Shown here one piece after another: positions 15,016 to 43,276 of a stretch of DNA of 44,283 nt. How positions within the stretch are numbered: position 1 is the stretch's first letter; each line of letters begins with the position of its first letter. Made by a program: the position numbers and the translations under genes. The stretch is from sequence record NC_073069.1. The stretch is one strand, 5' to 3'. Below the pieces are notes generated by a model that saw only the letters and a list, made by a program, of their open reading frames with translations, was not told the origin of the DNA and did no database searches. The stretch is from Escherichia phage B2.

Positions 15016-15629
15016 TCGTTCAAATCCTCGGTTACGATTCCTGCTGAAATAATAGCGCCGCCGATCTCACGCTCGCCCCATAATACACCAAGCGCCGTAC
15101 CTTGCGCGGTCGTGTTTACAGGCCCACCGAACGCATACGACGCTTTGTTGTCAACGTCCTGCCGTGTCTGCAATCCTTTCGGCTGCGGCGACAGCAATTG
15201 CATAGCCCCGCCCAGCGCCATCGACACCCCGAACGAAAACGTCGCTGTACCGATAGCGGCAGCGGTCGCAGCCGAAGCCCCGAAAGCGGCAGTAGCAAGT
15301 CCGCCCGTATAGAACGACGCCACTACGATCGCGACACCCGCCAGCAATTGCCCCAACCCTCTTTTTGCGCCAGTCATAACCGGCGCGATGGTAACGACGC
15401 GGTTTCCGTGGAACTCGCCCAGCTCATCATAACCTGTCATCGTGTGGTTGCCTTTGCGCACCTTGAACATCATATTGTCCAGGTGGGCTGACATTAAAAA
15501 GTCCTGTAATCCTGGCAACTTCACACACAAGCCGGTGATTCCTTCGCCCGGTGTGAAGCAGTCCAGCTTATGCACTTTACCAAAACGACGCCCTAAGACG
15601 CCGTACAATTTAAACGTGGTCATTGCCAT
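15012..15629 (-). CDS. tail assembly protein (lambda gpI-like)
   Basis: 205 aa, glycine/alanine-rich hydrophobic C-terminal half, position between K-like and J-like genes. Confidence 0.7.
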   Translation of the reverse strand: MAMTTFKLYGVLGRRFGKVHKLDCFTPGEGITGLCVKLPGLQDFLMSAHLDNMMFKVRKGNHTMTGYDELGEFHGNRVVTIAPVMTGAKRGLGQLLAGVAIVVASFYTGGLATAAFGASAATAAAIGTATFSFGVSMALGGAMQLLSPQPKGLQTRQDVDNKASYAFGGPVNTTAQGTALGVLWGEREIGGAIISAGIVTEDLNE

Positions 15630-16360
15630 TCTGTGATATTCCCCGGTAGGTCTTTATGACGCACCCATTTAACCACATTGTCACGGAAAAATCCTGCCCG
15701 GAAGGGGATGACGCTCGACAGGCTGCCGTAGATATGGTGCAGTAATTGGTTGCCCGGGAGGAATATCCCAGCATGGTTAGGTACTGGAGCGCTGATTTGC
15801 ATGATGACCATTGCCCCCGGAGTATCCTCCTCGCACTCCCGGAAGCCCGCGCCGTACCAATTATCCATATACAGATTTTCGCCTGTCTCCCACCAGTTAT
15901 ACGGCACGCGGAAGTCTGGCAGGTTTACACCCTGCTTTTTGTGCCAGTCCATTACGAGGCCGTAACAATCCGTAATTCCGAGAACAAATCGGCGGCCTAC
16001 CAGCGGCGGGTCTTCAGGGTCGATCTCGATAAAGTCGCCATATTCGTTAGTGATGGTCCAGACTACGCCGCTGCCGTTGCATCCGTTAACGTCGCCCAGT
16101 GAGGGGGTAAGCTCTCGCTGTCCTGGATGCGAGTGGACTACGCGCACGACGTCGCCCATATCCTCGGCATCCATCCAGGCCATATCGCTGATTGTAAACG
16201 CGTCCTTTCGCGAGCGCACGCCGGTAGGGTCTTCGAATACGTTCATGCACGGGACAAATACTTGTTTGCGGCCTACCATGACGACCAACCCGCAGGCTTC
16301 TTCCGGCAGACAGGCCGCAACGTGCGCGGCGATATCGCTTTTAACCTTCTTCGTTAACAT
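15620..16360 (-). CDS. tail assembly protein (lambda gpK-like, JAB/MPN plus NlpC/P60 domains)
   Basis: JAMM-like VVRVVHSHPG motif and C-terminal Cys/His peptidase-like region. Confidence 0.75.
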   Translation of the reverse strand: MLTKKVKSDIAAHVAACLPEEACGLVVMVGRKQVFVPCMNVFEDPTGVRSRKDAFTISDMAWMDAEDMGDVVRVVHSHPGQRELTPSLGDVNGCNGSGVVWTITNEYGDFIEIDPEDPPLVGRRFVLGITDCYGLVMDWHKKQGVNLPDFRVPYNWWETGENLYMDNWYGAGFRECEEDTPGAMVIMQISAPVPNHAGIFLPGNQLLHHIYGSLSSVIPFRAGFFRDNVVKWVRHKDLPGNITEWQ

Positions 16361-17783: not shown

Positions 17784-20426
17784 TCATCGTTTGTACAGTA
17801 CACCACCCGGTTTCGTCGCTTTCACGATCTCGGCCTTCACCGCCTCGGTGATTTGCTTGCCGAACGCCTGCGCGGTACGGGGGTCCGGCCCGCTGACACT
17901 GGTATCCGTTTTACCGGTCCCAGTGTAAACGTTAGTCGTCACGACCATACCACCGCCTGCGCCAGACGCGGCAACGCCCAGTTTACCGTCCGGCCCGCGC
18001 TTCAGTGGCATGATGGCCTCGGGTCCAGCCTCACCCATCAACCCTGCGCCCTTAGCGAACGCCTGGACGCCATAACTGAAAAAGGTAGGCTGGCTTACCA
18101 CTTTCCCCGAATAGGCCGCTAGATTGCCTCCTGCGTACGCTCCGCCGTCCGCATTCTTAGTCAGGCCAGAGAAGATAGCGCCGAACAATCCGTTTTTGCC
18201 GCCGTCACCACCGAATGCGCTAACGATGGACTTGAATGCCTGCGATGTAGCCAGCTTGATTAATTCGCTCAGGATGGATTTGACCATATCCTTCGCGTTA
18301 ATCTTGCCCGTCTCGAAAAACTCGTTCATCGTGTCTTGCATAGCGCTGAACGTGAATTTAGTGAGCGACGCCATCTGCGTATATCCGTTACCCATTTCAT
18401 CCACGCTATCCTTAAGCCCGCGACTGAATCCATCCCATAGCGAGGCGTTAGCGCCGGTCTGCGCCTCCTGCACTTCCCGCAGCTTAGACACCGCCTTGTC
18501 TATATCAGTATCGTTAGCGCCAACCCTCTTCAGACGGTCGATTAGCTGCAATTCTTCGCGCAGGTTTGCCGCTTCGCGAGTGGAAAGCGCATAGCCCGCG
18601 GCGGTAGCTTTTAGTTCGGCGTTCTGGTTCTTAACGAAGGCATCGATCTGCGCGTGCGCCTTAACCTGCTTTTCTTTCGCGTCCAGCAATTTGGCTTCTT
18701 CGACGATCTGCTCGCGCACTTCCTTCACGCGTCCGAATTCTGCCATCTGCTGCTTTTCGGCCGCCGTTAGCGCTCTTTCTTTGCTCGCGGCGATTAACTG
18801 CTCATTGTCGGCGATCAGCTTGTTTAAGGCCGCTTGAGCGCGTTGCGTGCGGGTCTGCGTAGACGCGTTGGCTTCGATCTGCCTGCCGGATTCTCGAAGC
18901 TGGGCCAGTTCGCTCCGTGCGACTTCCAGCATTTTCATACCGGCATCCACGCGAACAGCCGCGGCCTTCTTCGGGGCCGGGTCTTTGTAACGCTCGTTTA
19001 CCTGCTTAACCGCCTCAGCAAGCTCTTTCTCGTCAATAACGCCGCGCTTATTCAGCAAATTGAGGCGGGCGATCTCGTCTGCGCGCTTCTTCGCGTTGGT
19101 TGCGTACTCCTTCTCGAACGCGGCGCGGTCACGGGCAGTGCGGTTGGCCTCCTCGTTCGCCTTTGCGGATTCGTCTGCGGCGCGGGCGTTGTCTCGCTCC
19201 GCACGGTTACGCAGGGTTAGCGACGCCACCACTTTTTCCTGGGCGACCAGTTCGCTGTAAAGCATGTTAATACGTGCTTTCTGCGCTTCAGTCATTACCC
19301 CACCGGCAGCGTTTACCGCTTTCATCTCGGCATAATAAGCCGTGGTCATGCGCTGCAATGACTCACGCGCTTTCATCTCTGACTCATTCGAGGACTGCGC
19401 GCGGCCCACATCCAGGATGGCATCCCACATTGATTTGGCTGCCGATGTGACGACGTTCATCGACCGCTCAAGCGTACCCATGTTGGACTTGATTTCATGG
19501 GTCATGCTGGTGAACGACGCAGCGGCTGTTTTGTTAGCCAACGCAACTGCGTCTGTCTCGCGACCCGCATCAACGAGCGACTGTACCTGCTGGATCTGCG
19601 CTTCGTTTACGACGTGATACTTATCCGCCAGCGCACGCAGTCCGCCAACGGGGTCGGTTGACAGCTTCGCCACCGCCGCTACCACATCCTCGATCGGCTG
19701 GCTGGACACCTTCGCGAAATCATTAACTACCTTAGCCAATGCGCCGAAGTCACCGCCCGCTTTCACACCCGCCGCCGCCAGCGCCTGGATTGTGTCACGC
19801 GTCTTGCGAAATGACCCGCCCATGCGCTCGGCGTTCTCGGACAGCACCAGGATCTGGTTAGCGGTGAGGCCGGAGATATTACCAGACAGCGCCAGCGTCT
19901 TATTAAGCGCCGCTACCTGGTTCTCGGCCCGTGACGTAATTGCCACGCCCACGCCTAACGTCGCCGTCACTGCCGCAAGTCCGATCCCTACTGGGCCGAG
20001 GAAGCCCGCAACATAACGCAGCGTGTTACCCAGTCCGCCAAACGCCCCAGTAAGCTGCGGTAGCTGCTGAAGCATAACGCGGTGCACCGGCATACCCATC
20101 TCAAGCGTTACCGCAATATCCTGCAACTGGAATGCGGCGTTCCGCGATGCGAATCCCAGGTTTTTGGTCGACATGCCTAATCGGCTGGCGAGTCGCTCCT
20201 GTTTCGTCATGCCATCTGCGGCACGCTGCGATTCAGTCGCTAACTTTTCCATTCCGCCCGCGGCGTCGCCAGTAACCTTTTTCGACTTGCCGAGTGTGTC
20301 GTTTAATTTCTTTACTTTCTGTTCTGTGTTCTCGGATTTCTGCGCAAATGTGTCCAGCACAGTATTAGCCGTTTTAATTTGCGCGACGTCCGCCTTGAGC
20401 GTGATGCCCGCTGCCTGATCTGCCAT
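17784..20426 (-). CDS. tail tape measure protein
   Basis: 880 aa, long alpha-helical and alanine-rich repeats, G-rich C-terminus; aggggga SD before ATG 20426. Confidence 0.85.
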   Translation of the reverse strand: MADQAAGITLKADVAQIKTANTVLDTFAQKSENTEQKVKKLNDTLGKSKKVTGDAAGGMEKLATESQRAADGMTKQERLASRLGMSTKNLGFASRNAAFQLQDIAVTLEMGMPVHRVMLQQLPQLTGAFGGLGNTLRYVAGFLGPVGIGLAAVTATLGVGVAITSRAENQVAALNKTLALSGNISGLTANQILVLSENAERMGGSFRKTRDTIQALAAAGVKAGGDFGALAKVVNDFAKVSSQPIEDVVAAVAKLSTDPVGGLRALADKYHVVNEAQIQQVQSLVDAGRETDAVALANKTAAASFTSMTHEIKSNMGTLERSMNVVTSAAKSMWDAILDVGRAQSSNESEMKARESLQRMTTAYYAEMKAVNAAGGVMTEAQKARINMLYSELVAQEKVVASLTLRNRAERDNARAADESAKANEEANRTARDRAAFEKEYATNAKKRADEIARLNLLNKRGVIDEKELAEAVKQVNERYKDPAPKKAAAVRVDAGMKMLEVARSELAQLRESGRQIEANASTQTRTQRAQAALNKLIADNEQLIAASKERALTAAEKQQMAEFGRVKEVREQIVEEAKLLDAKEKQVKAHAQIDAFVKNQNAELKATAAGYALSTREAANLREELQLIDRLKRVGANDTDIDKAVSKLREVQEAQTGANASLWDGFSRGLKDSVDEMGNGYTQMASLTKFTFSAMQDTMNEFFETGKINAKDMVKSILSELIKLATSQAFKSIVSAFGGDGGKNGLFGAIFSGLTKNADGGAYAGGNLAAYSGKVVSQPTFFSYGVQAFAKGAGLMGEAGPEAIMPLKRGPDGKLGVAASGAGGGMVVTTNVYTGTGKTDTSVSGPDPRTAQAFGKQITEAVKAEIVKATKPGGVLYKR

Positions 20427-20494
20427 TATGCAGTCCCCCTTTTTATGCAGTTGCCGTCGGTCATTGTATCAGCGAATTTAAAACAAACCTTATT

Positions 20495-20816
20495 CAGTCT
20501 CAGACGAGGGGGGCCAATAACCCCCGTCTAGTCTGAAAGACTGGGCTTTGTCCCGCCTGTCCCGATCGGCTAAAACCCGCGGCAGCACTGGCGGGGACAG
20601 GGGTGCTGTCCCGCTTTGTCCCGCCTCATTCTGTCCCGCTTTCTGTCCCGTTTGTTTTATGCAGAAAAACTGAATAGGCATTCACATTTTGGGGCGGGAC
20701 AGATCGGGACAGCACCCCTGTCCCGCTTTTAATTTATGCAATGTAGGTGGGTAAATATGCAGTTTTTAGAGGTGCGGGACGGAACGGGACAAAACGGGAC
20801 GTCCCGCCTGTCCCGT
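20495..20816. repeat. hairpin plus GTCCCGC iteron array, copy A
   Basis: First 70 nt (20495-20564) are 68/70 identical to 37292-37361; about 14 GTCCCG(C) units in both orientations up to 20816. Confidence 0.75.
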
Positions 20817-20820
20817 TCCG

Positions 20821-21146
20821 TTATGCGGGGTTCTGCCGCGCCATCTCATCCAGCGCAACGCGTTCCATTAGCTTGATATCTTTAAACGCACGTTGCGCGT
20901 TTTCGATACCGTGCATCTTAAACAGCCATTCTAAAACACCGTAGTCGATGCCGTATGCACCACCGAATCCGGTGCGCCATTGCGTGGAGCAATCTGTGAA
21001 GACTGCGACTACCTTCGCGTTGTCGGGCCATAGCGCAACGGGAGGACACACGTCTTCAGGTGTCGCACCCCATAAACTCGCGGCTAAATCTTCGGAGGGT
21101 GGCGGCGGGCCATAAAAGCGCCGCGCCGCCTCAATTAGTTTTTTTC
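20821..21146 (-). CDS. tail assembly chaperone -1 frame extension (gpT-like part of a G/GT-type fusion)
   Basis: Frame downstream of the G-like gene stays open in -1 from the slippery site through to 20821. Confidence 0.55.
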
Positions 21147-21497
21147 ACGCAACCCCATCAGTTCGAGGTAGTACGACGTATGGAACACGCCGAACGCGCG
21201 CGGGTAGTTGACCACCAGGCGGCGGACGTTCTCCGCGTTAAATTCGTCTGGAAGATTCCAGCCTTCAGCTACGTGCATGATGGCCTCGACCATAACGTTA
21301 AAGCCGTCCGGGTCATTGTCGTCATATTCCGACAACTTGCGCTCAGTATCCTGCATGGTCTGTGAGAATTCGTCGATGGGGCGGTGGCGCACGGTAAACG
21401 TCATTTTGCCTGGTTCGTTTTCGCCGGGGCGCGGGATTTCAATCGGCAGCTTAAAAGTCGGCTTAGGGTCAAGTGTAAAGAGTGGTGCTTTAGCCAT
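21135..21497 (-). CDS. tail assembly chaperone (gpG-like)
   Basis: 120 aa from ATG 21497 with ggaga SD; ends ...GLREKN at a GAAAAAAAC slippery run. Confidence 0.6.
   Translation of the reverse strand: MAKAPLFTLDPKPTFKLPIEIPRPGENEPGKMTFTVRHRPIDEFSQTMQDTERKLSEYDDNDPDGFNVMVEAIMHVAEGWNLPDEFNAENVRRLVVNYPRAFGVFHTSYYLELMGLREKN
21138..21144 (-). other. putative -1 programmed ribosomal frameshift heptamer A AAA AAC
   Basis: Slippery X XXY YYZ heptamer in the zero frame just before the G-like stop; the -1 frame continues into the 20821..21051 ORF. Confidence 0.55.
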
Positions 21498-21512
21498 TGT
21501 AGTATTCTCCAA

Positions 21513-30626: not shown

Positions 30627-32012
30627 TTAGTAGAAGTCTACAGTAGGAACAACGGCGATTGGGCGAATCACAGGGAACAGGTGCGCAACAGGATAGCCCG
30701 CTGCATCATTCATGTGGTCCACACCGGCAGTTTTATCCGGCTCGCCTTTCTTCAGGTCGTAAACCTGCTGTTCCAGACATTTCGCTAGTGTAGGGCATTT
30801 ATCCAGGTTGACAAAATACTGGCGCACGCCCTTCGAGTTGCACATCATCGTATTCATCGCGATCAATCGGTCTTTCACAGGGGGGTTAACGCTGTCGTAT
30901 TCCACCTCGAAGCCCGCATCTTCCAGTTGCGCGATATCGGACGACGACGCGTTGACCGTTTTGCGGGATTTTCCGCTGCTATCCGGGTACACGACGACCT
31001 TACCGGCAGCACAATGATCGGGGTAGCGCTCCTCGATCGCCTCAATCATAGCCGGGGTGTCAAACAGGTCCACAAATTCATCCACCGCGTGAATCTCGTC
31101 GCGGAACTCCTTGTTCTCGGTGACTCGCTGCCGTCTGACATACACAACCGCCGCCATCTTAGTGACGTTAAAGTCCATACCGATAATCAGCGTGTCGTCC
31201 GGCTGCACTTCTTCGGTGCTGGCGTTCTCCTCGCGGTTGAACATCTTGTACACCGCGCCCGACGTAAGGTTAACAAACAGGCCGTTCAGGTACGCATCAA
31301 TCAGGTTAGCCGGGTACTGACTGCGCAGCGTGTCGATAAAGTCTGCCGGTAGGTGGTGGTTGTCCGTGGTCTTCGCCCGGATCAGGCGCTTCTGGCTACC
31401 CTTCTCCACCTCGAAAATTTGATACATCGCCCGGTAGCCTTCCGGCGTGGACACGATGACAAACTGGCGGACGAAGCCCGCACGCAGACGACCGAGCAAT
31501 TTGTGGTATGCCGCCATTGCGACGTCTTGTTTCGTGGTGTCGAACTCGTCGGCAACAATCCACGCGGCGTTGACCCCGATCAGGCGGGTATAGTTCTCCA
31601 TTGATTCACAGATAACGCGGGTCCATTTGCCTTTCACCAGCACGTTATAGATCTTGTCCTGCTTATTGAACTTCCACCGGAATCCGGCCTCATCGAATGC
31701 CTTCTCCAGTTCCGGATACATGATTTTAACCAGGAGTGGAATAGTCGGTTCGGTCACGATGCCGTCATAACCGGGGTTAAGTGTCAGGAGCTGGATGACC
31801 TTACGCGCAGCTACCCACGACTTGCCGCCACCGAAGCCAGAACACAGGCCGAGGATTTTAGTCTTCGTGTCGCGCAGTAGTTCAACCTGGTGCGGCAAGC
31901 AATCAGGCTGGTAAAGGCGGACGGCCTGCGCAACGCGTGTCGGGCGTGGCGGTCGGTTACGCTTTGCGATCGCGCGTTCCAGTGCGCGGTGTTCTGCCGC
32001 ATAGTTACGCAT
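30627..32012 (-). CDS. terminase large subunit
   Basis: 461 aa; Walker A-like GLCSGFGGGKSW; ATPase then nuclease-like half; flanked by small terminase and portal. Confidence 0.85.
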   Translation of the reverse strand: MRNYAAEHRALERAIAKRNRPPRPTRVAQAVRLYQPDCLPHQVELLRDTKTKILGLCSGFGGGKSWVAARKVIQLLTLNPGYDGIVTEPTIPLLVKIMYPELEKAFDEAGFRWKFNKQDKIYNVLVKGKWTRVICESMENYTRLIGVNAAWIVADEFDTTKQDVAMAAYHKLLGRLRAGFVRQFVIVSTPEGYRAMYQIFEVEKGSQKRLIRAKTTDNHHLPADFIDTLRSQYPANLIDAYLNGLFVNLTSGAVYKMFNREENASTEEVQPDDTLIIGMDFNVTKMAAVVYVRRQRVTENKEFRDEIHAVDEFVDLFDTPAMIEAIEERYPDHCAAGKVVVYPDSSGKSRKTVNASSSDIAQLEDAGFEVEYDSVNPPVKDRLIAMNTMMCNSKGVRQYFVNLDKCPTLAKCLEQQVYDLKKGEPDKTAGVDHMNDAAGYPVAHLFPVIRPIAVVPTVDFY

Positions 32013-32563
32013 TAATCACCCTGACCTTTGCCGGTAGGTTCCACAACGACGTCGCCGTTATCATCTTCGTCGTCATCCAGAGGCACATCGTCGCGGACGC
32101 CGTGGTTGGCTTTAAGCAGGAATGTAGCGAAGCCCGCCGCGATGGTCACGCCGCCAGCTTCCATCAGGAAAGTTTTCTGCAACTCCATAGCATCCGCCAT
32201 CGCCTCGGCGAACTCCTCATGTGCGCGCGCCCAGCGATACAGGCAAGCGACGCCAACGCCTATTTCCGCGGCAAATCGACCGAAGGTTGGCATTTTGTTG
32301 CGAGGGATTACTTGCGCAGCGCCTTTATCGGAGTAGTTGACCTGCCAGGCGTCGGCGTCGGCAAAATAGCGGCGAAGCTGGTCGCAGTAAACGGATCGGT
32401 AGTCAGTAGGGCGTCCACATTTGCCGCCTTTACGGCGCTTTCCGTACTCGATTTCCGGTCCAAGATTGGTGTGCTCGGTTTGCTCGCCTGGTTTACGGCG
32501 CGGGGTTACTGCTACTCGTCCGTCCAGTTTGGCGCGTCGGCCCTTAACTTTGATTTCTGCCAT
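32012..32563 (-). CDS. terminase small subunit
   Basis: Start at ATG 32563 with aaaggg SD; HTH-like FGRFAAEIGVGVACLYRWA; acidic C-terminus; overlaps large terminase start. Confidence 0.55.
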   Translation of the reverse strand: MAEIKVKGRRAKLDGRVAVTPRRKPGEQTEHTNLGPEIEYGKRRKGGKCGRPTDYRSVYCDQLRRYFADADAWQVNYSDKGAAQVIPRNKMPTFGRFAAEIGVGVACLYRWARAHEEFAEAMADAMELQKTFLMEAGGVTIAAGFATFLLKANHGVRDDVPLDDDEDDNGDVVVEPTGKGQGD

Positions 32564-32627
32564 GATATAAGCCCTTTTGTTCATATGCGCCGACCATCGG
32601 CAACATAGGAGACGGCCCTGCCATCTA

Positions 32628-32668
32628 ATGGGGATTATAACAGGCACAAAAAAGCCCACCAAATCGGC
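32628..32668 (-). promoter_or_regulatory. sigma70-like extended -10 promoter upstream of the terminase genes
   Basis: tgttataat on the minus strand (TGn-TATAAT) about 65 nt upstream of the small terminase start. Confidence 0.4.
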
Positions 32669-37137: not shown

Positions 37138-37291
37138 ATTAATCACGCGCATGAAAAAGTCGATCGCTATCTGCTGCAACTGCAAACTGCATTTCTCACT
37201 CACCATTCTGCAACTCGCATTGGTTGCCTAGTTCAGCGACGACCGCAATTTCCAATATGCTGCCGTGTATTATGCAATCCCGGATTTTATG

Positions 37292-37448
37292 CAGTCTCAG
37301 ACGAGGGGGGCCATTGACCCCCGTCTAGTCTGAAAGACTGGGCTTTGTCCCGCCTGTCCCGCTCCCCGCCAGGCCGCGTCATCCGTGGCGGGACGGGGGT
37401 GCTGTCCCGCTTTGTCCCGCCCCTGGTCTGTCCCGCTTTTTGTCCCGC
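37292..37448. repeat. hairpin plus GTCCCGC iteron array, copy B
   Basis: 37292-37361 is 68/70 identical to 20495-20564; followed by about 7 GTCCCGC units; lies downstream of the primase gene. Confidence 0.75.
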
Positions 37449-37498
37449 TTACTTTATGCAGTTTTATTGCATAACTATGCATTATATTCACACTACAC

Positions 37499-37614
37499 GG
37501 CAACCAATACGACCGACTAAAAGCACGCAAAATGGCAACCAATGCGCGCAGAATTTAATCATTTACCGATATGGGGATCCCCATAACGGCAACCAATGCA
37601 CGCAAAATTTAATC
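37499..37614. repeat. GGCAACCAAT direct repeats flanking a 16-bp perfect palindrome
   Basis: 30-bp repeats at 37531-37560 and 37585-37614 (27/30 identical), a third core copy at 37499-37508, palindrome tatggggatccccata at 37570-37585; overlaps the primase stop. Confidence 0.6.
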
Positions 37615-39861
37615 TTTTAAGTCTTCATCGGTCGCTGAAAGCGTGATAGGGATATCCGATTTGATGACCAAATTAGACGACCCATAGATGGCCCCGGTGT
37701 GCGGATCGGTGTAAAAACCTATCACTCCGCGCTCCACCATATCGTCGATTGCCTTCGTCGAAGTGCCACCTTTCGCGAGTCCCGCCTGGCGGACAATTGC
37801 CGATTTACTGAATCCAGTATGGTCTGGGTTATCTTCCATCAGTTTTTCCAGGGCCGCATAAAGCACTTTCTCTTTTTCGTTGCGCGGTCCGGCGGTGTTC
37901 TCTTCCTTAACTGCGGCCTTTGCCTGTTCAATAGCGAACGGTGCCAGGGCAACCGGTACGAGGTAGAGAGTCTCGTCGCGTGGCGTGGAGGCAATCGGCT
38001 TGACGTCCCATCCGGCAACCACGTCGCCGAAGTCTGGACCGGTGCTGGTGGACTGGTGCGCCTCGAACGCTTCTGACTTGCGGAGATCCACCTTCACCTT
38101 GCACTTGAGCAGGACGAAGCCGCGCGGCGCTTGCTTGATGCCGTTACGTGACTTCTCATGATACAGGTTCAATTGTCCGGGCTGGTTGTCGTCCGGCTGT
38201 TCCAGGAAGAACGCAGAATCGACAGCACCATGCAGCGCGCCGGACCCGCGTGGGGTTCTGCTGCCGTTTGCACCTTTAGCCGGGTGGTGGATGACGCCCG
38301 CACTGCCACCTGTATTTTCCGCGATGGCCTTCAGCGCTTTGACCACTTCACCCATATCGCTGGCATTGTTCTCGTCGAACGGTTTAGCCTCGGCGGACCG
38401 CAACGCAACAGTCTGGTTGAGTGAGTCGAACGCCACCAGGCCAACCGGTTCGCCGTTAGCGGTGCGGTTGATAAAGCTGATAACTTCACGCAAACCGGAC
38501 TTGCTGGTGATATCCCAGCCGCGGGATTGCAGATCGATAATGTGCAGCTTGTCCAGGTCGTGCTCATATTTAATCTGCAATGCTTCTTTACGCTGGTTGG
38601 AGGCCTCACCACCTTCCGCATCGAAATAGAAGCAATGAGACTGGACGACCTTCGCACCGCCAAACGGGATCCCCGCGGCAACCGCGCCCATCTGCCCCAG
38701 CACGTAGAAGGACTTACCGATATTCGACTCACCCGCCATATACCAGGTCGATTTAAAGTTAATCAACCCCTCGATGATCGGGTCGTGCTTACTGAACAGC
38801 GCAACCGGCTCGTTATCTAGGTCCGCATCGGTGCACACGCCGTATTCTTCGCCGTCGCCAACCGCATCAACAATATGTTCATATAAGGACTCGACTTCCT
38901 CGTCGTCCAGACCAGGCAGGATGGCGGCGATTTGTTTACGTGACATGTTGTGCGGCTCGACGTTCAGGTAGTCTGGTATCCCGAGAAGACGTAGCGCCAG
39001 GTGCTGGTGTCTATTTAGCTCCGAGCAACACTCGTTGCCGGTGTGCATACACTTGAAACGGATCTCGCCATCCTTGACCATGATAGCCGTCGACCCTTCG
39101 CCGCTGTGCAGATGTTCGTTCGGGCACGGAACTTCATAACCGCGACCGGACGATAACGGCTCGAATCCGGCCTGAAAGCACCAATCAAGAATGCCGTCAG
39201 CCACTGCGGCGTCGCCCTGGGTAAGCTCGCGGCGTACTTCCTCTTTCTCCACCCCCAGCTTGTCCGCCAGGCGGAGCAGACGCCGCACATTGGCGCGTTT
39301 GCCGTAGTGGCACTTAATAACCGATTGCTGGTGCGGCAGGTACATCAGGCGGTTTGTGTCTTTCGTGCAATCGTCGAAGTCCACATCTGACAGACCAAGT
39401 TGGTGTAATAGCGCATACTGGACACGGCCCAGGTCTTCCGCCGGGACAGGCTTGTCCGTCAACACCAGGAAACGGGCGCAACGCGTGCCGCCTTTCAGTG
39501 GGTGACGGTCGCCGGTTGTGGTGTGGAATACGTGTTCCAGACCCGCGTCGATGAAAGCCTTACGGCAGCGGCGCAAGGTGCGAGTGTCGGTGCGGTCAAT
39601 ATCAAAGAACAGGATCGAGCGGTCCACCGCGCTGGTCTTACGGCGTAGGCCGTCACTGGTATATGCCACGATGCCATCGGCCTTGCGCTTGCGGCGCGCA
39701 TACTCGGCTTTATCCTCGGTCTTGTTGATGTGCACCGATGAGATTTCTTTCGCGTCATTGATAAATTCGAAAAATTCATCAGTTGTCATCTGGAAGTTTT
39801 CCGCCCTGGCTTTTTCGCCTTTTTTAGCGGGTCTTGTTACAGCGAATTTAATTAAGCTCAT
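37609..39861 (-). CDS. primase-polymerase/helicase-like replication protein
   Basis: 750 aa; N-terminal AEP-like ILFFDIDRTD and HTTTGDRH motifs; central Walker A GESNIGKS with RecA/DnaB-like ATPase region; C-terminal region reads as a possible wHTH. Confidence 0.7.
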   Translation of the reverse strand: MSLIKFAVTRPAKKGEKARAENFQMTTDEFFEFINDAKEISSVHINKTEDKAEYARRKRKADGIVAYTSDGLRRKTSAVDRSILFFDIDRTDTRTLRRCRKAFIDAGLEHVFHTTTGDRHPLKGGTRCARFLVLTDKPVPAEDLGRVQYALLHQLGLSDVDFDDCTKDTNRLMYLPHQQSVIKCHYGKRANVRRLLRLADKLGVEKEEVRRELTQGDAAVADGILDWCFQAGFEPLSSGRGYEVPCPNEHLHSGEGSTAIMVKDGEIRFKCMHTGNECCSELNRHQHLALRLLGIPDYLNVEPHNMSRKQIAAILPGLDDEEVESLYEHIVDAVGDGEEYGVCTDADLDNEPVALFSKHDPIIEGLINFKSTWYMAGESNIGKSFYVLGQMGAVAAGIPFGGAKVVQSHCFYFDAEGGEASNQRKEALQIKYEHDLDKLHIIDLQSRGWDITSKSGLREVISFINRTANGEPVGLVAFDSLNQTVALRSAEAKPFDENNASDMGEVVKALKAIAENTGGSAGVIHHPAKGANGSRTPRGSGALHGAVDSAFFLEQPDDNQPGQLNLYHEKSRNGIKQAPRGFVLLKCKVKVDLRKSEAFEAHQSTSTGPDFGDVVAGWDVKPIASTPRDETLYLVPVALAPFAIEQAKAAVKEENTAGPRNEKEKVLYAALEKLMEDNPDHTGFSKSAIVRQAGLAKGGTSTKAIDDMVERGVIGFYTDPHTGAIYGSSNLVIKSDIPITLSATDEDLKD

Positions 39862-39871
39862 TGCCGTTGCC

Positions 39872-40201
39872 TTATTTGGAAGTTTTATTATTGCGTACCC
39901 AGGATCGCACTGTGCTCTGGTTGATTCCGGTTAGCTCGGCGATCATAGCCCATGATTTACCCTCATCACGTAAACGGATAACCTGTTTTTTGTATTCTTC
40001 CATTTCTTCATTGTGCTTTTGCAGCTTGCTTGCTGCCGTACCGTTGAGTAATTCCAGCTTCGCGCGCAATTCTTTTTCGGTAAGTCGCAGACGTTCGATT
40101 TCAAATAGCACCGCACCCACGGCATCGGTATATGCCCAGGACCGGCTTGTCTCACTGCAAACAGTCTTAGTTAACATTTCGATTGCGTCGTCGATATTCA
40201 T
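39872..40201 (-). CDS. small HTH-domain protein (putative regulator)
   Basis: 109 aa with ggaga SD; C-terminal HTH-like SWAMIAELTGINQSTVRSWV; first gene of the leftward block. Confidence 0.45.
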   Translation of the reverse strand: MNIDDAIEMLTKTVCSETSRSWAYTDAVGAVLFEIERLRLTEKELRAKLELLNGTAASKLQKHNEEMEEYKKQVIRLRDEGKSWAMIAELTGINQSTVRSWVRNNKTSK

Positions 40202-40366: not shown

Positions 40367-40377
40367 GAAATTAGTTG

Positions 40378-40407
40378 TTGACACCTATCCTGCAACCAAT
40401 CTATTAT
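40378..40407 (+). promoter_or_regulatory. sigma70-like promoter for the rightward early operon
   Basis: TTGACA (40378-40383), 18-nt spacer, TATTAT (40402-40407); the spacer contains tgcaaccaat (40391-40400). Confidence 0.5.
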
Positions 40408-40603
40408 TCACCCCGTCGACAGGATGCAGGACGCAAACTGGAGAGGGGCAACGCAGGGGCCGGATCGAAGTGTCAGGATTCCCAACCGTGATTATATAAC
40501 CAGGTCCACTACCCGAAAGGGAGAACGCGTAACCTGGCAATATGTTAAGGCCACCGACGAAGTTTACTGCCGACACCTAAACTTAACCAATCGGAGATAC
40601 ACC

Positions 40604-42951: not shown

Positions 42952-43186
42952 AGTATTCGCATTCTTATTGATGATTATGCTCGGTGCGCTGGGCTTTATC
43001 CTGCATTGCGTGCAATGCGTGTTAATGGTGGCCTGGATGATTCGCCATCCGACCCGCTGGCTGGACGATGGATATAGTGCCGCCGTCGTCGACTGGGTGG
43101 AGAAGAACATCGACCGACCGCCGTTAAGCTGGATCGAGAACGTCATCAACTACGTGACCAGAAATCTTTTTAATGAAAATGCTTGA
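42944..43186 (+). CDS. small membrane protein
   Basis: ATGAATAA start/stop overlap; N-terminal hydrophobic helix FAFLLMIMLGALGFIL. Confidence 0.35.
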   Translation: MNKVFAFLLMIMLGALGFILHCVQCVLMVAWMIRHPTRWLDDGYSAAVVDWVEKNIDRPPLSWIENVINYVTRNLFNENA

Positions 43187-43276
43187 CCACCCAGGCGCAA
43201 CCAAGTAGATTAGCAACCAAGCCGAACGGGGTGGCTCACAATAACCCCGATACATGTGAAACTGAGGAATTGGAAA

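Follow-up and report, generated by a model that had tools for sequence, protein, structure and literature searches.

A conserved iteron module in the tail operon of Dhillonviruses as a candidate replication origin

Organisation of regions A and B

The window analysed here is the whole stretch of 44,283 nucleotides from Escherichia phage B2 (NC_073069.1). We studied an array of short repeats, hereafter region A, that separates the tail chaperone genes from the tape measure gene, together with a second array, region B, located close to the helicase-primase gene. The chaperone G part (21135..21512), the chaperone T part (20821..21051) and the tape measure gene (17784..20426) all lie on the minus strand, so that transcription runs from right to left. 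The gap between the T part and the tape measure gene is 394 bp long (20427-20820), in line with the approximately 390 bp of non-coding DNA given by an earlier reading made from the letters only (the sequence-only reading). The latter placed a hairpin segment at the start of the gap. Because the genes are transcribed from the minus strand, the hairpin block is actually found at the downstream end, just before the tape measure gene.

The hexamer GTCCCG is present at 37 sites on the two strands of the window. Fourteen exact sites (GTCCCG or CGGGAC, nine on the plus and five on the minus strand) are packed into 20550-20815, in region A, and seven into 37347-37447, in region B, while the remaining 16 are scattered over the window at chance level. 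As 0.22 copies are expected in 266 bp, the 14 copies seen in region A correspond to a Poisson P of ~1e-25, and the earlier count of about 14 copies in both orientations is borne out. Their start-to-start distance is mostly 9-10 bp. A second motif, TTATGCA, is clustered as well, with four copies in A and four in B for 14 in the whole window. The possibility that TTATGCA is a DnaA box (TTATNCACA) was considered and rejected, as positions 8-9 misfit and the single 8/9 match in region B is not conserved.

Read along the plus strand, the gap begins with the tape measure leader (20427..20462, minus strand), which carries two TGCATAA boxes (20426-20432 and 20443-20449, plus strand) and the Shine-Dalgarno sequence AAGGGGGA. 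This pair of boxes belongs to a module that is duplicated in region B (37270-37293). A motif scan and conservation then point to a candidate extended -10 promoter, TGATACAAT, at 20463..20471 on the minus strand. The hairpin block follows at 20495..20546 and forms a long nested stem-loop, AGTCT..AGACT / AGAC-GGGGG(G)-loop-CCCCC-GTCT / GTCTcAGAC. Analysed as single-stranded DNA, the block gave z = -3.3 and -3.7. The hairpins noticed in the sequence-only reading are therefore real, but they were described as two small ones, whereas the best fold is one long nested hairpin of ~50 nt, with three hairpins as the alternative.

The array proper starts with iterons 1-2 (20550..20564, plus strand, GTCCCGC ct GTCCCG). 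A variable spacer (20565..20607) contains a small inverted repeat and an additional, degenerate inverted iteron, GCGGGGAC, at 20593-20600, which forms the palindrome GGGACAG-N5-CTGTCCC with the next site. In some relatives, GGGACGTCCC stands in for this spacer. Iterons 3-6 (20608..20650, plus strand, three GTCCCGC and one GTCCCG) make up the left arm of an origin-like unit 1, followed by AT-rich core 1 (20651..20694, TTTGTTTTATGCAGAAAAACTGAATAGGCATTCACATTTTGGGG) and by a right arm (20695..20725) in which two inverted CGGGAC and one GTCCCG are jointly palindromic. This right arm is also one arm of a 35-nt inverted repeat (20594-20628 / 20690-20724, 91% complementary) that encloses the AT-rich stretch. 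A second AT-rich core (20726..20774) contains TTTATGCAA and ATATGCAG. The last segment (20775..20821) has three CGGGAC, then GTCCCGC and GTCCCG, and holds a perfect 13-bp inverted repeat (20779-20791 / 20809-20821) that touches the stop codon of the chaperone T part. Region A can thus be described as two units with opposed arms. Unit 1 has four plus-strand sites (20608-20650), a 44-bp core and two minus-strand sites (20695-20710), and unit 2 has one plus-strand site, a 48-bp core and three minus-strand sites.

Region B (37268..37460) is located 150-340 bp downstream of the helicase-primase stop codon. It comprises a TATGCA pair, the hairpin block, an iteron series of two, one inverted and four copies, and an AT-rich TATGCA region. 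The opposed iteron arm is absent, so that B has one arm and the core only, that is, half of an A-type unit. As had been noticed before, the 70-nt segment 20495-20564 has a second copy at 37292-37361, and the two differ at exactly two positions (20517 and 20519), which fall in the hairpin loop. The 70-nt match holds, but the homology extends further, over ~200 bp at 84% identity (20424-20450 and 20498-20665 in A, 37268-37460 in B), with A carrying a 47-nt insert relative to B. In SECphi18 (L132), the sequence preceding the first iteron is the same variant in both regions (GGGGTGCTGTCCCGCTGTCCCG), a place where A and B differ in other genomes. Such sharing may reflect occasional gene conversion between A and B.

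Open reading frames (ORFs) cross both regions. The 63-amino-acid ORF reported earlier in region A is present (20490..20681, minus strand). In region B, the reported ORF of 81 amino acids was not recovered, and the frame seen there is a TTG-initiated ORF of 91 amino acids (37345..37620, plus strand). An alignment of 15 Dhillonvirus versions shows 1-nt indels inside region A, so that ORFs across the array are not credible genes; the earlier view of the segment as non-coding is upheld.

Conservation of the element in Dhillonvirus

A BLAST search of GenBank phages with the gap returned 157 records, essentially all of them Dhillonvirus (HK578, SO-1, EP23, JL1, SSL-2009a and others), and in 150 of these the match extends over 80% or more of the query, at 80-95% identity. 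By this similarity, the window phage is itself a Dhillonvirus of the HK578/SO-1 type. The comparison with phage genomes that had been proposed as a check thus finds the element in all 157 records. Region B is conserved in the genus to a similar degree.

We measured the conservation of each class of columns in the alignment of 15 distinct versions of region A. Iteron columns are 92% identical to the window and 67% of them are invariant. The values are 98% and 87% for TATGCA columns and 95% and 83% for those of the 52-nt hairpin block, as compared to 81% and 45% for all other columns. By this measure, the hexamers, the TATGCA boxes and the hairpin are all under selection. In addition, the palindromic layout is swapped among relatives, GGGACAG-N5-CTGTCCC being exchanged for GGGACGTCCCGCCTGTCCC, with the hexamer retained.

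The element has already been annotated. In the record of Sodalis phage SO-1 (NC_013600), of the same genus, the orthologous element is a repeat_region named 'region A', between gp16 and the tape measure gene, described as direct, inverted and palindromic repeats similar to 'region B', which is itself annotated directly after the replicative helicase-primase. The record gives annotation alone and states neither a binder, nor a family context, nor a function. In the HK578 and WF5505 records a terminator is labelled inside region A; in HK578, the central palindrome of 20775..20821 is called a rho-independent terminator. Several other GenBank records have small hypothetical proteins inside the region. 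Thus, CEC_Kaz_2018 (MK728541.1) has two 'hypothetical protein' coding sequences within the array, corresponding to 20426-20518 and 20490-20681 of the window. Coding sequences of this kind are very probably spurious.

Two of these records showed further peculiarities. MK728541.1 puts a 'Terminase small subunit' note on the chaperone G gene. Its length (44283 nt) and its ORF coordinates are identical to those of the window, from which it differs by ~10% substitutions and zero indels over the 6.4 kb compared, non-coding gap included. In the tape measure gene, 222 of the 267 differences fall at third codon positions. Such a substitution-only divergence is odd for two natural isolates. In Escherichia virus TH11 (L133, MT446389.1, marked UNVERIFIED), region A is 890 bp long (15423-16312) and has 26 GTCCCG sites, reflecting either a true expansion or an assembly artefact.

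Outside the genus, tape measure relatives do not exceed 31% identity and belong to other groups of phages. In 15 of 20 distant relatives, the gap between chaperone and tape measure genes ranges from about -20 to 70 bp (crude ORF call), which agrees with the earlier remark that the two genes are normally adjacent. They are also adjacent in the Cornellvirus FSL SP-031, which has a single origin module. From these small gaps and from the arrangement in FSL SP-031, the tail-operon copy looks like a Dhillonvirus innovation that has been kept in all 157 genomes.

Association of the iterons with helicase-primase genes

We then looked for arrays of the same hexamer in other phages. A scan of IMG/VR for GTCCCGCCTGTCCCG gave four contigs with dense GTCCCG clusters and DNA unlike the window, and in all four a primase and/or AAA_25 helicase gene adjoins the cluster. 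A search of IMG/VR for three GTCCCG at 9-10 bp spacing gave at least 120 matches, in contigs of 35-74% GC. Among the matches listed, we took the 44 densest arrays and collected, to the left and right of each, the longest ORF lying within 1.5 kb (n = 78). Pfam domains in these flanking ORFs were AAA_25 (20), Prim-Pol (12), PriCT_2 (3) and DnaB (2). In control ORFs picked likewise from these loci, at points 3.5 kb or more away (n = 55), AAA_25 and Prim-Pol were both absent (0/55 each; Fisher P = 9e-6 for 20/78 versus 0/55). Among the same listed matches, all 29 loci with a locatable AAA_25 gene have the array between -195 and +53 bp from the stop codon.

Some of these loci deserve a word of their own. 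Collagen-like Gly-Pro-Ala coding repeats (GGTCCCGCT, at L143:2880-3280) also yield the triple GTCCCG pattern, so that a few matches are false positives. In two loci of high GC content (L059:5100-5160 and L085:4040-4120), the opposed GTCCCG arms enclose, instead of an AT-rich core, an alternating purine-pyrimidine tract of 60-80 bp (GC/GT, prone to Z-DNA), preceded by TTATGCG or ATGCG. This tract may be an alternative easily distorted core. The 74-kb unrelated contig IMGVR_UViG_2974801466_000001 has two separate arrays (L135 and L136), and the two-locus layout may therefore not be unique to Dhillonviruses. When the contig of a relative was probed with the iteron dimer AGGGATAAAGGGATA, the helicase-proximal locus alone was matched, single or differently spaced iterons escaping this probe.

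The proteins linked to the arrays have in common a C-terminal domain of ~100 amino acids with the motif W-R..F-Y....[DE][AT]KKKAFxRA...L...G.IG....VW. We performed the reverse test with 77 loci picked by protein homology alone, using an alignment of seven helicase-primase sequences. In 31 of them, 6-13 GTCCCG surround the stop codon, at 7-15 per kb as compared to no more than ~1.2 per kb elsewhere in the locus. Many other loci have, at the same place, CCGGACA, GGGGACA, CGTAACA, CGCAACA, CGTGACA, CCGCACA, ACCGCA, ATCACA or CCGACA. The 'KKKAFxRA' helix, taken as the recognition helix of a winged-helix domain, varies in step with the iteron, KKRVTWKRT going with CGTAACA and KKRATWART with CGCAACA. 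Such a co-change is what one classically sees for an initiator and the iterons it recognises.

The helicase-primase of the window (37609..39861, minus strand, 750 amino acids) is the proposed reader of the hexamers. Its only Pfam match is AAA_25, at residues 357-531 (2.3e-19), and its database relatives are named RepA-family or RecA-family ATPases. From this assignment, the helicase core is of the RecA-type AAA_25 class, RSF1010 RepA-like, and not of the superfamily 3 (SF3)/AAA+ class. The N-terminal 350 amino acids are without Pfam match, although Prim-Pol is found in relatives belonging to the wider family. Between the N-terminal region and the AAA_25 domain, at residues ~280-330 (38700-39000, minus strand), the family alignment has a conserved cluster of Cys and His residues (C-P-N..H ... 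C-Q-H.H-C), which suggests a zinc-binding element.

A C-terminal winged helix is predicted at residues ~662-733 (37663-37878). In an AlphaFold model built on an alignment of database homologues, this domain has the order H1-beta-H2-H3-wing with a predicted local distance difference test score (pLDDT) of 81-88. The best Foldseek matches are the winged helices of MarR, IclR, histone H1 and ORC. A protein database search with the C-terminal 180 amino acids alone gave zero matches, and a hidden Markov model of the GTCCCG-class C-terminal domains had no significant match among all six-frame ORFs of the window.

The closest full-length relatives of the window helicase-primase are 37-46% identical to it and include those of Salmonella Cornellvirus phages such as FSL SP-031. 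Several have, directly after the stop codon, a collinear module consisting of an AT-rich core (TTATGCAGAAAAAnnGAATAGTTATGC), phased iterons, a long hairpin and TTATTCA/TTATGCA. Their iterons are each different (AGGGATA, GGGGATG, CCGACA or GGGGAGA). The core of region A at 20657-20677 (TTATGCAGAAAAACTGAATAG) is nearly identical to the core of these relatives, whereas region B has diverged there, and a part of core 1, TTATGCAGAAAAAnnGAATAG, is common to the post-helicase modules of Cornellvirus FSL SP-031 and of contig L357.

A probable replication origin in the tail operon and the alternative explanations

On balance, we favour the view that region A is a DNA-level iteron module of a replication-initiation system, the more complete of its two copies. 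It is neither junk nor an RNA gene, and most likely it is a replication origin placed inside the tail operon. Among several roles, the sequence-only reading had listed a DNA-level binding array that might be an origin, and had named the C-terminal region of the primase among the proteins that could bind it. This option is favoured by the association with helicase-primase genes, by the iteron covariation and by the predicted winged helix, while the partition-like and activator roles listed next to it found no support.

Several known systems are related in organisation. In P4, ori and crr are two separated clusters of one short iteron (TGTTCACC), direct and inverted, bound by the alpha protein. 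The helicase of alpha is of the SF3 type, and crr lies 4.5 kb from ori, outside any structural operon. Alpha is a primase-helicase with a C-terminal winged-helix origin-binding domain, and P4 reportedly needs both ori and crr. Regions A and B resemble this pair in that two separated clusters of one iteron would have a single primase-helicase as reader, and they have no sequence homology to it. Bacillus phage SPP1, a virulent siphophage, has initiator-binding repeats in its replication region and far off among late genes (oriL and oriR), although it has a dedicated protein, G38P, as initiator in place of a helicase-primase, and its repeats have unrelated sequences. With RSF1010-type oriV, where a separate RepC acts on iterons and a pair of ssi hairpins, one on each strand, serves RepB', the likeness seen is the AAA_25 helicase, no search for a RepC-like protein having been made.

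The origin of plasmid pRN1 was experimentally defined as a stem-loop downstream of the prim-pol/helicase gene, and its authors mention similar arrangements in some bacteriophages (PMC4234260). The likeness to our case lies in a long stem-loop shortly downstream of a Prim-Pol-helicase-winged-helix gene. The pRN1 origin differs by the absence of iterons, an SF3 helicase and a stem-loop of ~100 nt, as compared to a hairpin of ~50 nt within iteron arrays here.

The closest parallel in layout is provided by the origins of the SaPIs, pathogenicity islands found in Staphylococcus aureus. These have hexanucleotide iterons just downstream of rep, with an AT-rich centre and at least two opposed iterons on each side, and Rep recognises the iterons via its C-terminal winged helix and loads itself (PMC9371898). 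By analogy, this description would fit region A almost point for point. Six or more copies of a 5-6 nt iteron are expected of a SaPI-type origin; there are 14 in A and 7 in B, and their conservation exceeds the background. Opposed arms around an AT-rich centre are found twice in A and are lacking in B. A C-terminal winged helix is predicted by AlphaFold in the proposed initiator, and the iteron sequence varies between relatives, as it does among SaPIs, together with initiator specificity. As to the position immediately downstream of the initiator ORF, B starts ~150 bp after the stop codon and A is 16.8 kb away. Here, unlike in SaPIs, there are two loci, one of them in the tail operon, a conserved long hairpin and TTATGCA boxes. 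SaPI Rep is moreover a member of an AAA+ clade that is classed with helicases of the MCM type (PMC9371898), whereas the protein considered here has a RecA-type AAA_25 helicase fused to a primase. With an AAA_25 helicase in place of an SF3/AAA+ one, the system would work like SaPI Rep and P4 alpha while standing outside their protein family. From the SaPI description, and because A has two units with opposed arms and B half a unit, we propose that A is probably the principal origin-type loading site for the helicase-primase. By the same analogies, B may be either a weaker origin or a cis auxiliary site like P4 crr.

From the anatomy, the conservation, the association, the covariation and the predicted fold, we infer binding by this protein, melting and origin activity as follows. 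The C-terminal winged helix of the helicase-primase (37609..39861) would read the GTCCCG(C) hexamers, which lie one helical turn apart in opposed arms around the cores 20651-20694 and 20726-20774. Protein bound to both arms would melt the core, at which the RepA-like AAA_25 helicase would load itself. The primase part would make the first primers, and the phage DNA polymerase would take over. The adjacent G/C hairpin could be extruded as a stem-loop at initiation, as in pRN1, and/or act as a barrier ending the transcription of the chaperone genes. Since the module interrupts the tail operon, the candidate promoter TGATACAAT would start a new transcript for the tape measure and distal tail genes.

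Several observations weigh against this proposal. A distance of 16.8 kb separates region A from the helicase-primase gene, which is the case for no other array examined, and FSL SP-031 manages with one module. GC and AT skew track gene orientation and show no inflection at A or B. All Foldseek matches of the C-terminal domain are weaker than E = 1e-3, and the GTCCCG-class model, when run on the window domain, aligned with its first helix only, at E = 0.12. The domain is divergent, so that the case for GTCCCG binding by the window protein is made from context and from the predicted fold. A role in transcription alone would also account for the hairpins and the palindrome right after the chaperone gene and for a promoter ahead of the tape measure gene. 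Finally, we found no paper discussing the element, either for Dhillonvirus or for its iterons.

A first alternative is that the helicase-primase binds region A and that A is nevertheless not an origin but a cis-acting accessory site. It could be an enhancer or partner of a real origin at B, in the manner of P4 crr, a titration or handcuffing site that restrains initiation, or a loading site coordinating replication and late transcription. In favour of this, there are two separated iteron clusters with ~200 bp in common, B occupies the canonical position after the helicase-primase gene, and the reported requirement of P4 for both ori and crr offers a precedent. The opposed arms around AT-rich cores are however found in A and not in B, and the ancestral core TTATGCAGAAAAAnnGAATAG, which follows the helicase gene in relatives, has been retained in A. 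We regard an accessory role as unlikely.

A second alternative is that region A mainly controls transcription. A terminator or attenuator would follow the abundantly expressed tail tube and chaperone genes, a promoter would serve the low-copy tape measure and distal tail genes, and GTCCCG would be the operator of a regulator setting tail protein ratios or timing. The region does lie between co-oriented late genes, it bears the terminator annotated in HK578 and WF5505, and the perfect 13-bp inverted repeat sits at the T stop codon. Our terminator scan, in contrast, returned one site, on the plus strand (20705-20725), and no minus-strand hairpin with a U tract. What follows the minus-strand hairpins is GAGACTGAATAAGG or CCCGCACC. 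Without such a U tract, termination at the array is no more than possible. Concerning initiation, scans for two-hexamer sigma70 promoters gave no sites in A or B. The extended -10 pattern TGNTAYAAT occurs twice in the window, once as TGATACAAT at 20463-20471 on the minus strand and once upstream of terS. TGATACAAT is 37 nt before the tape measure ATG, within the 47-nt insert specific to A, and ATTGTATCAG is invariant in 15 genomes. It is, from its sequence, a plausible candidate for the restart promoter of the tape measure gene. The other extended -10, TGTTATAAT (32634-32642, minus strand), precedes the likely start of the small terminase gene by ~50 nt and may serve as promoter of the packaging and head operon.

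The hypothesis of GTCCCG operators has to be compared with the motif actually seen at the sigma70-like promoters of this phage, GCAACCAAT, which is a different one. GCAACCAAT is dispersed, with 29 matches at no more than one mismatch as compared to 12.7 expected. It is found at 2546, 5488, 5505, 7167, 10282, 15745, 26404, 33999, 36564, 37098, 37129, 37219, 37500, 37535, 37589 and 40392, six copies surrounding region B. It stands in the spacer or at +1 of promoters, as in TTGACA-N17-TATTAT at ~40374-40410 (plus strand), TTGACT...CATACT at ~34040-34000 (minus strand) and TTGACC...TAGATT at ~43180-43215 (plus strand). The motif looks like the operator of a phage regulator. The HTH_23 protein (39872..40201), named in the sequence-only reading, is perhaps this putative regulator, more probably than a GTCCCG binder. 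We also considered GCAACCAAT as the cognate iteron of the helicase-primase and rejected it, the boxes being dispersed at promoters genome-wide. Elsewhere, GTCCCG arrays track helicase-primase genes and not tail genes, and relatives with adjacent chaperone and tape measure genes are without such an array. Altogether, we consider a main role in transcription control to be distinctly improbable.

A third alternative, that of a structured RNA, had also been raised by the sequence-only reading. The region could be a non-coding RNA, for instance a protein sponge with GGA-containing repeats, or act in cis as a regulatory leader on the tape measure mRNA. The hairpin block is indeed stable, with an RNA fold of -27 kcal/mol in the window, and it is conserved. 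Blocks from five lineages share the form X-loop-X' [G-run loop C-run] X-loop-X', with DNA z-scores of -2.7 to -3.7 and RNA energies of -21 to -27 kcal/mol, where X is AGTCT in the window, CCTC in L357, CTCC in L359 and CATC in L355. Relatives outside the genus thus keep the same fold with entirely different stem sequences, and compensatory stem changes are seen across genera. This statement on covariation rests on the individual folds of the five lineages, because MAFFT with RNAalifold misaligned the blocks. A search of the whole window against Rfam 15 at gathering score gave no match, and in other phages the arrays overlap coding 3' ends. The two orientations, the palindromes and the helical phasing (~10 bp) of the hexamers argue for recognition of double-stranded DNA by a protein, not RNA. 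On the same grounds of sites that are palindromic and in both orientations, a CsrA-type RNA sponge with GGA cores was rejected. The structured-RNA option was therefore not sustained, the conserved hairpin block nevertheless remaining to its credit, and we find it very improbable. The weakest alternative, a pac or partition site for the small terminase or a ParB-like protein, is hardly credible: repeat arrays are typical of such sites and the array of contig L059 lies between replication and packaging modules, but there are two copies here, both far from terS (32012..32662), ParB_N was found in 2 of the 78 neighbouring ORFs, terminase domains were not enriched over controls, Dhillonviruses are described as lytic in the literature, and no partition gene was seen in annotated relatives.

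To return to the origin reading, it can be carried further. Dhillonviruses would have moved a complete origin into the tail operon, and its firing, or the occupancy of the array by the helicase-primase, would physically gate the passage of transcription from the tube and chaperone genes to the tape measure and distal tail genes. This would couple the replication state to the stoichiometry and timing of tail proteins. B would then be a half-origin acting as regulatory partner, and a recognition code, made up of the 'CGxxACA' iterons and the winged helix at the C-terminus of Prim-Pol/AAA_25 helicase-primases, could be read to predict origins for hundreds of uncultured phages. Taken as a whole, this extended scheme is speculative and quite unlikely.

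Origins are apparently unmapped in the literature for most tailed phages outside a few models, Dhillonvirus included, although the genus is represented in the BASEL reference collection. If true, the proposed role of region A would give Dhillonviruses a concrete origin and would account for a puzzling non-coding gap in a tightly packed tail operon. It would mean that an origin can sit within a late operon, with a dedicated restart promoter downstream. For phage engineering, it would mark what to leave undeleted and suggest a portable pair of origin and initiator. More generally, it would provide a rule for annotating the origins of many metagenomic phages and their specificity: to look, at the 3' end of Prim-Pol/AAA_25 helicase-primase genes, for short phased hexamers that vary together with the C-terminal winged helix.

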